55,618 bases of DNA, from assembly GCA_041572575.1 (NCBI GenBank), contig JBFFSH010000004.1, positions 1 through 55,618 on the forward strand, in the 5' to 3' direction. Positions within the stretch are counted from its first letter, which is position 1, and every line of letters begins with the position of its first letter. The notes under the pieces were generated by a model. It was not told where the DNA came from and made no database searches. It worked only from the letters and a program-made list of their open reading frames with translations. This DNA comes from Thermodesulfobacteriota bacterium. GTDB lineage: Bacteria; Desulfobacterota_D; UBA1144; Nemesobacterales; N074bin48. Made by a program: the position numbers and the translations under genes. Shown one piece after another: positions 20,329-48,456 of the stretch.

Positions 20329-22275
20329 TTACTGGGGTCTTGTAACACCCAGTTTTCTCATTCGTGCTCTGAGAGTACTCGGATTTATATCCAATATAGA
20401 AGCGGCACCTTGTTCCCCATGCACTTTCCAATTGGTTTTTTCAAGGATTTTAACAATATGATTCCTTTCTATATTCTCTAGCCTCATTAAATTCAGGTTA
20501 TCCTGCAGTTCTATATTATCAATAAACTGATCTTCTATATGAAGTGTACTTCCCTTCGAAAGTACAATATTTCTCTCTAAAACATTTTGTAGTTCTCTAA
20601 TGTTGCCCGGCCAATTATATCTCAAAAGCTTATCGTGAGATTTAACAGAAATCCGGCGTATATTTTTACCTAATTTTTTCGAGTATTGCGTTATGAAATA
20701 ATTAACTAAAAGAGGTATATCGGATTTACGTTCTCTTAGTGGGAGCACAAGTACAGGCACAACATTTAATCTATAATACAGGTCGGCTCTGAATTTATTC
20801 TGCTTGATAGAAAGTTCGAGATTTCTGTTTGTGGCAGCTATCACTCTCACGTTTACTCTTTGAGTATTACTGCTGCCTACTCTCTCATATTCCCCTTCCT
20901 GAAGAATCCTAAGAAGCTTAACCTGCAAGTCCACAGGTAATTCAGAAATTTCATCTAAAAATATGGTCCCGCCATCGGCAATCTCAAACCTGCCAATTTT
21001 TTCCTTAACAGCCCCGGTAAAAGCGCCTTTTTCATGTCCGAATAACTCACTTTCAATAAGCGTAGGAGCTATGGCTCCACAATTAACTTTTACAAATGAC
21101 CTGGTATTTCTTGAGCTTAGGTTATGAATTGCCCTTGCTATTAGTTCTTTACCAGTTCCGGTTTCCCCCAATATAAGTACAGCAGATTCAGTCGGAGCTA
21201 CGATTTCAACTTTATTAAGAATTTTCTTAAGCTCAATATCTTCACCTATTATTTCTTCAAAATTGTCATTTAATCTAATCTCTTCTTTCAGGTAAATATT
21301 TTCATGATGCAGTTGGTCTTTTAATATCTCCAACTCTTCTAATGCATTCTTTAATTCCTGGGCCTGTTTTGCATTATTAACAGATACTTCAATTTCCTTA
21401 GATACTATTTCGAGCAGTCTCAACTCGTCTTCACTAAAAGCATCCATTTCCATCGCATGTAAATTTATACAACCAATAGTCTTACCACTCTGTTTTATAG
21501 GTAGTGACAGACAGCTTTTAGTGCCGAGCTTCAGTACTTCTGGGCTTGCCTGAATTTCTTTTTCTAGATCCTCACAATATTTAGCCTTACCGGTGGAAAT
21601 AATGTTCCAGACTATGCCATTTGGATATTTGATAATTTCAAATTGCTCCAAATACCAATTTGGAAGACCTGCATAGCCGCTTAGTACCGCATTATCCTGT
21701 TCTGCAAGATATATTTCTACACCGTTTATACTATCTAAATTTTCAAAGAGGGAATTTGAAGCATTTCTCAATACTTCTTTAAGGTCTATAGTCTTATGAA
21801 TATCCTTAAGAATGTTGTTTATTATTTCTTCATTTCTATTTTTTCTTGATAATTTTAAGAGGGTTTCCTGTAAAGTTTTCTCAGATTTTCTGGTTCTGGT
21901 TATATCCTTAAAAATACATACTCTTCCAATTACCTGATCATTTAACTTTTGAGGAGTCGTGATTTTTTCAAAAATTCGTCCATCTTTAAACTCCAGTATC
22001 TCAAAAGTATCCTTCAATCTGTTATTAACGAGTTCATTAAATTTCTCGTTGTAATCTTCTGAGTGCTTAACAAGAGTACCGAAATATTCAAAAATATCTG
22101 ATTTTTTCTTACTTTCTATTTTATCGCTGGTGATTTTCCAGACATCTAAGAACTTTTCATTGTAATAAAGAAAATTACCATCAGTATCTATGATCAAAAT
22201 TCCATCTGGCTCACTATCGATAGCCGACTTAAAAAAGTCGGTGTATTCAATTATATTTTTTTTGGTAACATTCAT
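20329..22275 (-). CDS. sigma54-dependent enhancer-binding protein, PAS-GAF-AAA+-HTH (FhlA/NifA-like)
   Basis: N-terminal PAS-like and GAF-like regions, GETGTGKE, intact [28 protein letters not shown]-terminal HTH. No receiver domain. Confidence 0.93.
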
Positions 22276-22286
22276 TATTTTTAATG

Positions 22287-22317
22287 GTCATATTTTACAA
22301 CTGCTGTCATATTTGAC
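22287..22317. promoter_or_regulatory. tandem candidate upstream activator sites
   Basis: GTCATATTTTAC (22287-22298) and GTCATATTTGAC (22306-22317): 11/12 identical, 19 bp apart, GTCA-N4-TGAC dyad. Confidence 0.55.
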
Positions 22318-22375
22318 TAATATTTTTGAATACCTATTCATCTTCATACCTAACGATTTCCAAAATATTCCATAA

Positions 22376-22388
22376 ATTCAGTGACTTA
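22376..22388 (+). promoter_or_regulatory. candidate IHF site
   Basis: ATTCAGTGACTTA is one mismatch from WATCARNNNNTTR, preceded by an AT-rich tract and lying between the candidate UAS and the -24/-12 box. Confidence 0.4.
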
Positions 22389-22405
22389 AGACAGGTTTGC
22401 AGATA

Positions 22406-22421
22406 TGGCATACCCCATGCA
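22406..22421 (+). promoter_or_regulatory. sigma54 -24/-12 promoter
   Basis: TGGCATACCCCATGCA: GG and GC separated by exactly 10 nt, 36 bp upstream of the ATG with an AAGGAGGT RBS, next to a sigma54 activator gene. Confidence 0.8.
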
Positions 22422-22457
22422 TAAAGTATATTAACTTTTATTAAGGAGGTAAATAGG

Positions 22458-23201
22458 ATGAAAGTATTATATTTAGTATTTTCTCTATTACTCATATGTA
22501 TATCTTATTCAAAACCAGCAGTTTCTGAGCTGCCTGATCCGGGAATGGAAATTGATGATAGGACGGCTTTGGTAGTAACAGATCCACAAAATGATTTTCT
22601 TAGCCCCAAAGGAGTTACATGGGGTGTAGTAGGGGAAAGCGTTACAGAAAATAAGACAGTTCCTAATATTGAAAGCCTGCTAAAAATCGCCAAGGCAACC
22701 AATATTCCGGTTTTTGTATCCCCTCATTACTACTATCCTACGGATAAAGGCTGGATGTTTGAGGGAGCGCTTGAAGTTCTGATGCATAAAATCAATATGT
22801 TTGACAGAGCCGGGCCTTTATCTCTCGAAGGATTTGAGGGTTCGGGAGCGGACTTTCTCGAGCCTTACAAGCCCTACATTGAAGATGGAAAAACAGTAGT
22901 AACAAGTCCGCACAAGGTTTACGGACCCGAGGCAAATGACCTTGTATTGCAGTTAAGGAAGAGAAAGATTGATAAGGTAATACTTGCAGGTATGTCTGCA
23001 AACCTTTGTGTGGAAGCTCATATGAGAGAACTTCTCGAACAGGGTTTTGAAGTTACGGTTGTAACAGACGGCACAGCTGCTGCAAAGGTTCCTGAGGGTG
23101 ATGGTTATAAGGCAGCCATGGTCAACTTCAGATTTATGGCAAATGACCTTTGGACAACAAAAGAGGCCAATGAGAAAATGAAAAGCTTTGCTAAGAAATA
23201 A
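22458..23201 (+). CDS. exported cysteine hydrolase (isochorismatase superfamily)
   Basis: Signal peptide. Catalytic Asp (VVTDPQNDF), Lys (SPHKVYG) and Cys (GMSANLCVE). Confidence 0.88.
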   Translation: MKVLYLVFSLLLICISYSKPAVSELPDPGMEIDDRTALVVTDPQNDFLSPKGVTWGVVGESVTENKTVPNIESLLKIAKATNIPVFVSPHYYYPTDKGWMFEGALEVLMHKINMFDRAGPLSLEGFEGSGADFLEPYKPYIEDGKTVVTSPHKVYGPEANDLVLQLRKRKIDKVILAGMSANLCVEAHMRELLEQGFEVTVVTDGTAAAKVPEGDGYKAAMVNFRFMANDLWTTKEANEKMKSFAKK

Positions 23202-23279
23202 TCCTGGCAATACATATTTGCTTATTCTCTATGGAAATGATTTAGCTGTAAATATATATTAAAGGAGAGTTTTATATAA

Positions 23280-24479
23280 ATGAAAATCACAAAACTTTAT
23301 AAACTATTATTATTTTCTTTGCTGTGTATGTTCATCTCCCCCAAAATATCTAATGCACAAGCCATTGTAGTCCAGTTTCTTGGAACATCAGACGTAAGTG
23401 TACAGATGATAGACACCGATGGTGACGGAGAAAATGACGTGGAGTCTAACTGCTATGAAAACGACCTGGTTGATCCAACCAGCGGAGAAGTAGTTGGCAC
23501 TGGTCTTGATTGCCTCAGAGATATAGTAGCTAATGAGGATGGAAGTGTAACTCTTATAAGCAATATATTCTTTGATTTCGATGGATTCGGGCTTATTTCT
23601 TCTGAAGGTACAACCACGGTTCAGCCATTACTGACTCAATCTGCTCTGGATGCGGGGCTTACAAACGGCACCGGTTCCTTTTCAGATGAGGATACAATAA
23701 TGTTTGGCACAGGGGTATTTGAAGATGCTACGGGTAATGTACGTTTATCCGGCCTTGTTGACCTTAGCAGTTTTCCAAATGAAGCATTTTTTAACTGTGT
23801 TTTTGAAATAGCAGTGGATGGCGATCCTGCCCCAAATATCACAGGAAGCGGTGATGAGGCTATAGTAGTCAAATTTCTGGGAACAGACTCCGGACAGGAT
23901 ACAATGATCGACACCGATGGTGATGATGTAAATGATGTGGAATCTACATGCTTTGAAAATGATCTTGTAGACCCAAATACCGGTAATGTTGTAGGGCATG
24001 GAATTGACTGTCTAAGAGATATAACACCGGTTGAAGATACAAATGGTCTTACTCTTACAAGCAACATATTCTTCACATTTGATAGTGGAGGGCTAAATGG
24101 TCTGATATCCTCAGAAGGTACAACCACTGTGCAGCCCCTGGTTACAGATTCTGCATTGGATGCGGGTCTAACTCATCAAACCCAGTCCTTTAGAGATAAT
24201 GATACTATCAAATTTGGGACTGGTGATTTTGCAGGCGCTACTGGAAACGCCAGACTATCGGGACTTGTGGATTTAACTACTTTTCCAGACGATACCTTTT
24301 TCAATTGCATGTTTATTATTAAGGCAAACAGGATTGTTGGTGTTAAAAGCGGAAGCGGATGTGCTCTGGCATCAAATAATGATTATGCACAAAGCGGTGC
24401 TATTAATTATTTAATGATGTTATTGGTTCCGTTGTTGATAATTGGTATCAGAAAAAGATATTTTGCAAGTAATTCTTAG
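23280..24479 (+). CDS. exported protein with two tandem ~150-aa repeats and a C-terminal membrane anchor
   Basis: Signal peptide, two homologous domains, then SGSGC-spacer-hydrophobic helix-RKR tail. AAGGAG RBS. Confidence 0.85.
   Translation: MKITKLYKLLLFSLLCMFISPKISNAQAIVVQFLGTSDVSVQMIDTDGDGENDVESNCYENDLVDPTSGEVVGTGLDCLRDIVANEDGSVTLISNIFFDFDGFGLISSEGTTTVQPLLTQSALDAGLTNGTGSFSDEDTIMFGTGVFEDATGNVRLSGLVDLSSFPNEAFFNCVFEIAVDGDPAPNITGSGDEAIVVKFLGTDSGQDTMIDTDGDDVNDVESTCFENDLVDPNTGNVVGHGIDCLRDITPVEDTNGLTLTSNIFFTFDSGGLNGLISSEGTTTVQPLVTDSALDAGLTHQTQSFRDNDTIKFGTGDFAGATGNARLSGLVDLTTFPDDTFFNCMFIIKANRIVGVKSGSGCALASNNDYAQSGAINYLMMLLVPLLIIGIRKRYFASNS
23361..24320 (+). repeat. intragenic tandem domain duplication (23361-23810 and 23859-24320)
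   Basis: Shared blocks AIVV.FLGT, MIDTDGD..NDVES.C.ENDLVDP, DCLRDI, GLISSEGTTTVQPL, SALDAGLT, FGTG.F..ATGN.RLSGLVDL..FP...FFNC.F.I. Also visible at DNA level (GACACCGATGGTGA; GAAGGTACAACCAC). Confidence 0.95.
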
Positions 24480-24485
24480 AGTGAT

Positions 24486-24521
24486 TTAAACCCACCTCAA
24501 TATTATTTGAGGTGGGTTTAA
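24486..24521. terminator. bidirectional intrinsic terminator
   Basis: Perfect 15-bp inverted repeat TTAAACCCACCTCAA / TTGAGGTGGGTTTAA between convergent genes. Confidence 0.8.
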
Positions 24522-24534
24522 TACTATCTTGTTT

Positions 24535-25023
24535 TTAATCTCTCCATTTACTGAATACATAATCAGATTCTTTTTGAGACTGATGGCAGCTAAAGCAGCT
24601 TTGCCCTCCGTCTGCAACAAGGCGCTCTGTTTTACTGTCCCCTGCAAATCCTTCGAATCCCCAGCCTCCTGTGGATGCATATGCGGCTGAATCTTTTTGC
24701 ATAATACCAATTAGTTTTCTATCTGATTCCTGAATTGTCTTATCGGCCTGATTATAATTTAAAAGATCAAACACAATAACAGCACCATCCTGAAAAGTGC
24801 CTGATCTATAACCCTCAATTGCTTGTTCGTTGCCATAGATATGGTGTATACCCTGAAACGGATTTTCAAGCGGATGTCCAGGCTCTATAACCATTGTTTT
24901 TACATGTGTCCAGCTCCGGTAACCATCCGGATATGCAATCTGTGAGCTTTGTCCAACGGTTTTCATACACCCAACAGCTCCAACGACTAAAACAAATACA
25001 CCAAAGACGATAGATTTTTTCAT
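24535..25023 (-). CDS. cytochrome P460/c'-beta family lipoprotein (c'-beta type)
   Basis: Start moved to ATG 25023 (AAGGAGG RBS). Lipobox AVG-C. YPDGYRSW, F.DGAVIVF, GGWGF, C-terminal heme motif CFSCH, DYVFS. Confidence 0.85.
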   Translation of the reverse strand: MKKSIVFGVFVLVVGAVGCMKTVGQSSQIAYPDGYRSWTHVKTMVIEPGHPLENPFQGIHHIYGNEQAIEGYRSGTFQDGAVIVFDLLNYNQADKTIQESDRKLIGIMQKDSAAYASTGGWGFEGFAGDSKTERLVADGGQSCFSCHQSQKESDYVFSKWRD

Positions 25024-47258: not shown

Positions 47259-48456
47259 TTGAAACCTCTTCCAATACAGTTCTAATTATACCAAGTGCAA
47301 TATCTATCTCTTTTTTACCTGCAATTAGCGGGGGCAGAATTCTTATATTTTTTTGTTCAGTTATGATTGTGAGAAGCCCCCTTTTATATAATTTTTTAAC
47401 AACCTCTGATGCATATTTATTATTTGCAAGCTCTATGCCAATAATAAACCCGCTGCCTCTCACTTCTTTTATGATATTGCTGTTATGTGATTGTACCTCT
47501 TTTAGTTTTGAAATGAAGTAAGAGCCCAGTGTTTGCACATTATCAAGCAGACCATCATCCATTATGGTGCTTATAACGCTATAACCAACGCTCATGGCAA
47601 GTGGGTTTCCTCCCATTGTAGAACCATGAGAGCCCGGGGTCAGATATTTTGCATGCTTGTTTTTTGCAAGCAGCGCCCCGCAGGCAAGCCCGCCTCCAAG
47701 CGCTTTTGCAAGCGTCATAAGGTCTGGCTTAAAACCAAGCTGTTCATAGGCAAACATGCTTCCGGTTCTTCCAACACCAACCTGAATCTCGTCTAATATG
47801 AATAAGATATTGTTTTGATTACATAGTTTTCGGACTTTTTTCAAATACCCATTTGGTGGAATTATTACTCCATTTTCACCCTGTATGGGTTCGAGTATTA
47901 CGGCGCATACTTTTTTGTCACCGGCTGCTTTTTGAAGCTGGGAGAAATCACCATAATCTACAAATTTCACACCAGGCACCATCGGGTTAAAGCCCTGCCT
48001 GTACTTCTTGTGTCCCGTTATGCTAAGCGACCCGTATGACCTTCCATGAAATCCGCCTTTAGTTGATACGATTTTATACCTGCCCCCGTTTTCATTTCCC
48101 CATTTCCTTGCAAGTTTTATCGCGGCTTCGTTTGCTTCGGCTCCGCTGTTGCAAAAAAACACCCGGTCTGCAAATGAATTTTCAACGAGAAGCCTTGCAA
48201 GTTTTCCCTGTTCTTCGGTATAAAAGAGGTTTGAGCTGTGAACGATCTTATTTAACTGAGAAGATATTGCTTTTTTAACTTTCGGATGATTATGACCAAG
48301 GTTATTGACTGCAATACCCGTAGTAAAGTCCAGATATTTATTGCCCTCGAAATCCCAGACCCAGCATCCTTTGGCTTTTTGCAGTGCTATGGGGTATCTT
48401 CCGTAATTTTTAAATCCATAGCTGTCCAGAGCAGCTATTACATCAGAAGATTTCAT
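47251..48456 (-). CDS. argD: acetylornithine aminotransferase
   Basis: [38 protein letters not shown]. Located between argB and argF. Confidence 0.94.

Follow-up and report, generated by a model that had tools for sequence, protein, structure and literature searches.

Which DNA sites does an uncharacterized transcription activator use to control the gene that lies next to its own? The question is raised by the stretch of DNA analyzed here (the window, 55,618 nucleotides), which is contig C4 of a 2.6-Mb draft genome (G000; 37% G+C) from the Dadabacteria, to our knowledge a phylum without cultured members. In the window, an intergenic region of 182 bp (22276–22457) separates the divergent genes of an enhancer-binding protein and an isochorismatase-family hydrolase, and an earlier note on this DNA had read it as an enhancer, an IHF (integration host factor) site and a σ54 promoter. 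The two activator boxes, the dyad, the IHF-like site, the promoter motif and the ribosome-binding site (RBS) that it described are all present at the positions it gave (Table 1), and its distances of −145 to −115 for the boxes and −56 to −44 for the IHF-like site are arithmetically correct. The motifs and how well they are conserved, the fact that they occur together with the activator, and the architecture of homologous loci lead us to favor, with some confidence, a standard enhancer-dependent σ54 control region, in which activator boxes, an IHF-like bend and a −24/−12 promoter precede a two-gene unit. Read in this way, it is an ordinary textbook σ54 arrangement and not a new kind of regulation.

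A very probable σ54 promoter and the adjacent activator gene

The −24/−12 motif upstream of the hydrolase gene has the canonical spacing (GG-N10-GC exactly; consensus TGGCAC-N5-TTGCW). The strict pattern occurs 72 times in the genome; 51 of these occurrences fall in the ~14% that is non-coding (outside long open reading frames), and 39 of the 72 are no more than 250 bp upstream of a correctly oriented gene. Most of the well-placed motifs are found a few tens of bp before a start codon, and here the distance is 36 nt. The genome encodes rpoN (356 bits, above the cut-off). In the two orthologous loci introduced below, the motif reads TGGCAC-N5-ATGCA (L025) and TGGTAC-N5-TTGCA (TGGTACACCCTTTGCA in L027, which is nearer to the consensus). 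A canonical motif beside an intact activator gene, kept in both orthologous loci and set in a genome with rpoN and many such promoters, is very probably a real promoter, and this part of the earlier note holds.

When the σ54 promoters of the genome are aligned, the consensus extends to TTGCA[C/A]T and is followed by an A/T-rich stretch, which partly explains the conservation seen just after −12. A block at that place, TAAAGTATAT (22422–22431), is invariant in three lineages and overlaps the −10 (TATATT) of a σ70-like match. Because a 9-bp insertion in L027 parts the block from −12, it keeps register with the RBS and not with the promoter; in the window it would precede the predicted start, and in L027 it would be part of the leader. 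A second exact σ54 promoter pattern of the window, TGGCATAGAGCTTGCA, is found on the minus strand at 47425–47440. The genome is rich in σ54 elements, with 27 matches to the AAA+ core of the activator and at least 39 well-placed −24/−12 promoters per 2.6 Mb.

The activator matches PF00158 at 240 bits, and its GAFTGA loop and Walker A motif (GETGTGKE) are seen in the alignment. Its domains are intact. For no named activator, NifA, FhlA and NorR included, does it reach the NCBIfam equivalog cut-off (NorR model, 365 bits with a cut-off of 476; FhlA model, the second-best NCBIfam match, 381 bits with a cut-off of 830). A search of 5.8 billion proteins retrieved three lineages (100%, 94% and 78% identity), after which identity drops to 53%; the source label of the 78%-identical orthologue is 'Candidatus Dadabacteria'. 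The three orthologues do not differ in their recognition helix. A scan of the genome collection for orthologues returned distant activators only, the sole genome of the same genus is without an activator orthologue (best match, 48% identical), and among the 80 loci found in a metagenome scan with the hydrolase, this activator occurs only in the same three lineages.

Upstream sites and their counterparts in homologous loci

The orthologous loci (L025/L028 for the 94% orthologue and L027/L030 for the 78% orthologue) have the same gene order as the window. When the window is compared with L027, identity is 68% in the intergenic region and 52%, 52% and 31% at the fourfold-degenerate sites of three genes, which indicates that the intergenic region is under constraint. 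The interval from box 2 to −24 contains no insertions or deletions in any lineage; the only insertions, both in L027, measure 39 bp (next to where the activator gene starts) and 9 bp (after −12). In three other loci, which represent a sister lineage (L032, L033 and L073), the hydrolase is 89–90% identical and the activator is absent, and these loci have neither the boxes nor a correctly placed GG-N10-GC, their upstream DNA holding only scrambled remnants of the control region of the window. The gene for a 399-aa protein, which follows the hydrolase gene in the window, is also missing in these loci. Upstream of their hydrolase gene (L032:170–470, L033, L073), ATTTGCAGAT, GACTTAAGACCGATT, CTAAAGTAT and a TGGCAC without −12 appear in permuted order; this region looks like a decayed or rearranged σ54 promoter.

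The two boxes are identical at 11 of 12 positions, are spaced 19 bp start to start, with cores at −141 and −122, and form the only direct repeat found in the repeat search. The pattern GTCA-N4-T[GT]AC is present at 76 places in the 2.6-Mb genome, and this pair is the only one within 45 bp; among the 11/12 repeats upstream of the 38 σ54 promoters scanned in this genome, it alone contains G/C. The arms of box 2 are retained in all three lineages. In L025, the same T-to-A change has occurred in both boxes, by which box 2 becomes a perfect palindrome, GTCATATATGAC, and box 1 of this orthologue keeps 11 of 12 positions. In L027, box 2 (GTTAAATATGAC) matches the reverse complement of the window box at 11 of 12 positions, so that the GTCA and TGAC arms are kept and the W4 center is flipped, as a symmetric dimer site would allow. 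The boxes probably form the enhancer, although only in part: the proposal is strengthened by the box 2 arms and mainly by the architecture of homologues and weakened by a degenerate box 1 in L027 and a repeat that is only mildly improbable. We consider box 2 a probable activator site, and for box 1 the arguments for and against such a role are in balance. Of the elements expected to be conserved in orthologous promoters, the promoter and the box 2 arms are kept in the three lineages present in the databases searched, and box 1 is kept only in part.

The dyad downstream of box 2 could serve the activator as a third site or be bound by a different regulator; its exact pattern has one other copy in the genome, inside a gene. 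It is flanked by a 12-nt inverted repeat, AATATTTTTGAA (22319–22330) and TTCCAAAATATT (22358–22369), whose arms are 92% complementary and 27 nt apart, and in L027 the counterparts of these arms lie 34 bp apart as a direct repeat that matches at 11 of 12 positions. The genome-wide scan that the earlier note had suggested, for box pairs near −24/−12 motifs, gave no other pair and no link to other σ54 promoters, whether with exact patterns, relaxed patterns or the dyad. As the motif occurs at no other promoter of the genome, there is no regulon to confirm the boxes. The activator appears to be dedicated to this single promoter. A single box-like match, located 28 bp from the promoter at C5:50405, was discarded as too close for an enhancer. 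The promised concrete binding motif thus comes down to a testable site, GTCA-W4-TGAC, with a variable box 1 and no second genomic target. Paired at 19 bp and combined with a full promoter map, this site provides a starting point for the study of the activator.

The IHF-like site has one mismatch to WATCARNNNNTTR and two to the stricter WATCAANNNNTTR. Its consensus positions, TCAG..A.TTA, do not change among the three lineages, while three of the four N positions do, and a perfect match to the R form, WATCARNNNNTTR, is found in L027 and L003. The TCAR-N4-TTR core, on the same strand in each case, begins at −65 in L003; in the window and in L028, L027 and L004 its first position is −54. It is present in the expected zone of 4 of 16 homologous promoters, versus 0.32 expected from shuffles (P = 2e-4), and of 2 of 14 when the window clade is left out (P = 0.03). 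The site described in the earlier note is therefore backed by its position, conservation and recurrence in homologues and is not significant by sequence alone; a functional role is slightly favored. Two further HU-like proteins are encoded in the genome besides the IHF-like ones considered below.

In the mechanism that we propose, σ54 RNA polymerase would form a closed complex on TGGCAT-N5-ATGCA (22406–22421). Dimers of the divergently encoded activator would bind box 2, and more weakly or variably box 1, ~115–145 bp upstream, and the TGAA-N6-TTCA dyad may serve as a third site. Once the sensor domains receive a signal, the activator would oligomerize, a bend at the IHF-like site (~−50) would bring it to the polymerase, and ATP hydrolysis would open the promoter, with transcription expected to start near 22432. 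The transcript would run through the genes of the secreted hydrolase and of the 399-aa exported protein as far as the hairpin at 24486–24521.

The closest homologues of the activator (52–60% identical, with the helix NP[SN]TLRSRM) also adjoin −24/−12 promoters, and their enhancers, which stand out in GC-richer DNA, consist of two or three boxes with an ATAT[TA]T core. L003 has three ATATTT boxes with cores at −173, −154 and −135 (spacing 19 bp), and in L005 the cores are at −175, ~−156 and −137 (18–19 bp; the middle one, ACATTT, was read by eye). Cores at −155 and −136 in L009 and at −143 and −124 in L004 (the latter by eye) are again spaced by 19 bp, as are the two copies of CGCGATAT[TA]TCACGG in L050/L053. 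L039 and L011 each have two boxes 18 bp apart; for L018 and L062, with two or three boxes, the value is 17 bp. In an unbiased search for the best 12-mer repeat, 8 of 19 loci gave a spacing of 17–19 bp (binomial P = 3e-4; 1e-3 without the window). A weight matrix of the homologue boxes was tried as a site finder and rejected, as the window boxes were weak and the top genomic matches were inside genes, away from σ54 promoters. Because the matrix scores are weak, the likeness between the window and its homologues is one of architecture more than of sequence.

The nearest parallels are PAS-GAF activators of the same order that drive genes for extracytoplasmic function (ECF) σ factors or operons for a STAS protein and an ECF σ factor (L003, L005, L004 and L009). 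They resemble the window activator in domain order, length (652 aa in L003) and divergent orientation, are 52% identical to it with a near-identical recognition helix, and have two or three ATATTT-core boxes at 19 bp and, as in the window, a TCAR-N4-TTR core (−54 in L004, −65 in L003). They differ in their targets and in the box flanks, which are GATATTTC as opposed to TCATATTT[TG]AC in the window, and in several of these loci the proximal box is ~13 bp further from the promoter than that of the window. At L003:3481–3525, in L005 (minus strand, ~1150–1210) and in L112/L113 (G013:C5 and G015:C1), the homologues are divergent from genes for an ECF σ factor or for a STAS protein and an ECF σ factor. 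These targets, which belong to other families of the same order, have −24/−12 promoters and three ATATTT boxes ~19 bp apart, an arrangement that, judged by its motifs, amounts to a σ54-to-ECF-σ cascade.

These comparisons hint at a clade-wide grammar, which we put forward tentatively and regard as possible rather than probable: PAS-GAF activators with the helix NP[SN]TLR[SA]RM would rely on AT-core boxes, two or three in number and with a 19-bp phasing, together with an IHF core at about −54 to −65, and the box flanks, not the core, would set the specificity of paralogues. The grammar would span the Dadabacteria order and related metagenomic lineages, and 19 bp corresponds to a non-integer number of helical turns. 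If it is true, enhancer sites and regulons would become predictable for many uncultured bacteria, and the 19-bp phasing could reflect the layout of successive dimers that build the hexamer. For the σ54 regulons of the order, the comparison suggests an annotation rule (phased AT-core boxes plus an IHF core), which would be of use with ~27 such activators per 2.6-Mb genome.

Table 1. Features of the intergenic control region and of the genes on both sides of it (window positions)
Feature	Position	Strand	Remarks
Box 1, GTCATATTTTAC	22287–22298	+	Candidate distal activator site, center ~−139
Spacer, AACTGCT	22299–22305	+	Between the boxes; best-conserved upstream stretch
Box 2, GTCATATTTGAC	22306–22317	+	Candidate proximal activator site, center ~−120; dyad GTCA-W4-TGAC
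Possible σ70-type promoter of the activator gene, TAGTCA-16-TAAAAT	22292–22319	−	Hexamers inside box 2 and box 1; 9/12 in consensus scan
Dyad, TGAATA-CC-TATTCA	22327–22340	+	Conserved as TTTTTGAA-N6-TTCA
IHF-like site, ATTCAGTGACTTA	22376–22388	+	~−56 to −44
σ54 promoter, TGGCATACCCCATGCA, TGGCAT-N5-ATGCA	22406–22421	+	−24 GG at 22407–22408, −12 GC at 22419–22420
Predicted transcription start	22431–22433	+	11–13 nt after the −12 C, from σ54 promoter geometry
RBS, AAGGAGGT	22443–22450	+	ATG follows after 7 nt (22458)
Enhancer-binding protein gene, 648 aa	20329–22275	−	PAS, GAF, AAA+ σ54 interaction domain, AAA lid, Fis-type helix-turn-helix (HTH) domain (Pfam, NCBIfam)
Target gene 1, isochorismatase-family hydrolase, 247 aa	22458–23201	+	Pfam PF00857; N-terminal signal-like hydrophobic segment
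Target gene 2, 399-aa exported protein	23280–24479	+	Internal duplication; 78 bp 3′ of the hydrolase gene
Perfect 15-bp inverted repeat, 6-nt loop	24486–24521		Ends the two-gene unit, before a convergent cytochrome gene

Points against the enhancer and other explanations

Several observations weigh against an enhancer made of both boxes with an IHF site and a σ54 promoter downstream. An 11/12 repeat of a 12-mer at a spacing of 12–40 bp arises in 2.7–4.2% of shuffles of this region and is present in 8% of real intergenic regions of 150–260 bp. Despite the identical recognition helix, box 1 of the 78% orthologue L027 (GCACTATTTAGC) retains only 7 of 12 positions, and neither box is as well conserved as the spacer between them (7/7 in the 78% orthologue, 6/7 in the 94% one). 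The weight matrix of the homologue boxes gives the window boxes 5.8 and 3.9 bits, scores that take second and third place within the intergenic region and places in the thousands across the genome. When one mismatch at most is allowed, the IHF-like pattern occurs 164 times in the window versus 192 expected (~1 per 340 bp), and since this frequency is slightly below chance, the match by itself means nothing. The IHF-alpha-like and IHF-beta-like proteins of the genome (102.7 bits with a cut-off of 111, and 91 bits with a cut-off of 115) both remain under their equivalog cut-offs. A σ70-like match, ATGGCA-16-TATATT (22405–22432), overlaps the σ54 promoter. Finally, a low-depth metatranscriptome contig spans 22026–22350 and, if it represents activator mRNA, the activator transcript would start upstream of the boxes and not within them.

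As the main promoter of the hydrolase gene, ATGGCA-16-TATATT was rejected, as its −35 is not kept in L027, where the 9 bp are inserted. Other runs that cover this part of the window (21800–24700) are X25–X28, labelled as transcriptomic RNA-Seq from seawater. They show a flat depth over genes and spacer, and their longest contigs measure 37–87 kb; because of these two features they behave like DNA libraries and are unfit as expression evidence. The metatranscriptomes X29–X32 gave scattered contigs at 2–5× depth, none of which crosses 22351–22481. Neither set of runs yielded a usable transcript 5′ end.

The conservation pattern raises the possibility, which we consider unlikely, that the promoter is real and its true enhancer is the conserved block 22296–22340 (formed by CAACTGCTGT, which is invariant, together with box 2 and the dyad TTTTTGAA-N6-TTCA), with box 1 a recent lineage-specific near-copy. 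This would account for the full retention of the spacer next to a box 1 that is so degenerate in L027, where the two boxes are alike at only 5 of 12 positions, and for the invariance of the left flank of the dyad, ATTTTTGAA; the center of the dyad is 22 bp from that of box 2, a distance that would suit another dimer. However, the direct-repeat boxes of homologues are spaced by 17–19 bp, which corresponds to the interval from box 1 to box 2 and not to that from box 2 to the dyad, both boxes changed in parallel in L025, and the half-sites of the dyad are unlike those of the boxes. A more general doubt, and the least probable of the explanations considered here, is that chance in AT-rich intergenic DNA produced the boxes and the dyad as well as the IHF-like match, with only the −24/−12 motif and the RBS functional and the activator working from solution or from an unrecognized site. 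The repeat frequency (3–8% of regions), an IHF pattern at or below its chance frequency and a motif that is present at no other genomic target are what chance would produce, but it would hardly leave an intergenic region 68% identical next to synonymous sites at 31–52%, nor an interval from box 2 to −24 free of insertions and deletions. The architecture recurs in homologues, and the elements were lost along with the activator in the sister lineage.

The boxes are located 12–42 bp from the start codon of the activator gene, and their main role, although we think this improbable, might be to serve that gene, either as σ70 hexamers or as the operator of another repressor, in which case the enhancer would be elsewhere or dispensable. 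A 9/12 match to a σ70-type promoter, TAGTCA-16-TAAAAT, has its hexamers within box 2 and box 1 on the minus strand, and the −35-like hexamer is retained in all three lineages in the alignment (TAGTCA, TAGTCA and TTGTCA). On the other hand, one would not expect the −35 and the −10 of a promoter to match one another at 11 of 12 positions, the −10-like hexamer decays to TAAATA in L027, and a single match carries little weight when 16 such matches are found in 2.6 kb versus 8.3 expected. The two roles are also compatible, as the overlap of an enhancer with the promoter of the regulator is a known route to self-repression, for example for XylR and PspF. Given the position of the boxes near the start codon and their overlap with the σ70-like promoter, bound activator may damp its own expression; the negative autoregulation suggested in the earlier note is, on this evidence, possible but rather less than likely.

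Known systems and the two-gene unit

Among known systems, norR is divergent from its norVW target. In Escherichia coli, NorR is a GAF-domain σ54 activator that is served by several short dyads upstream of a −24/−12 promoter with IHF between (PMC2831303), and the NorR box has the consensus GT-N7-AC, an 11-bp inverted repeat (PMC4987338). The window shares with this system a GAF activator, short dyad sites and an IHF (here IHF-like) site between enhancer and promoter. It differs in that the arms of its boxes are GT-N8-AC (12 bp, GTCA-W4-TGAC) and not GT-N7-AC, so they are not NorR boxes, and in that two clear sites are present instead of three. An additional PAS domain distinguishes the activator, whose target is a secreted hydrolase and not a nitric oxide reductase. 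A reading of the boxes as NorR-type GT-N7-AC is ruled out by base count, as is a NifA-type TGT-N10-ACA reading.

FhlA, which belongs to the same broad GAF-AAA+-HTH branch as the window activator, uses an enhancer of the CATTTCGTACGAAATG-type palindrome (PMC4987338), and this palindrome was not found in 22276–22457. Homologues of the window activator have FhlA-like boxes that resemble ATTTCG/CGAAAT, such as CACGATATTTCGTG in L009 and TTACGAAATATCGTAA in L018; what the window boxes have in common with the FhlA consensus is no more than the AT-rich core (CATATTT), and there are no hydrogenase or formate genes nearby. OrpR of Desulfovibrio vulgaris controls a local regulon of adjacent operons from an imperfect palindrome upstream of a σ54 promoter and requires IHF (PMC8359166). 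It resembles the window in being a dedicated, co-localized activator with a regulon confined to its neighbors, as is predicted for the window, and differs in its site (GGGCGYRTTTTGCGCCC), sensor domain and targets.

The genes of the predicted unit are both conserved, the hydrolase being 91–94% identical in the orthologous loci and the 399-aa gene, which has the same orientation, being syntenic in all three lineages. The proposed control would place a secreted isochorismatase-type hydrolase and its partner protein under tight, signal-dependent regulation. From the RBS to the ATG (22446–22460), 15 of 15 positions are identical across the three lineages in the alignment. For the activator gene, no Shine-Dalgarno sequence was recognizable in 22276–22290 (minus strand) in any of them; its absence, together with the perfect AAGGAGGT of the hydrolase gene, fits a low-level regulator or a short leader.

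Relatives of the hydrolase (65–80% identical) in L039, L050–L055, L062, L089 and L092 are likewise preceded by −24/−12 promoters and adjoin different enhancer-binding proteins. These loci come from at least five other metagenomic lineages, and σ54 control seems to recur in this family of secreted hydrolases. The 399-aa protein (23280–24479) consists of two similar halves, each of which opens with AIVV.FLGT...IDTDGDGVNDVES.C.ENDLVDP, and its C-terminus (GSGCALAS, a hydrophobic stretch and RKRY) resembles a C-terminal sorting or anchor signal.

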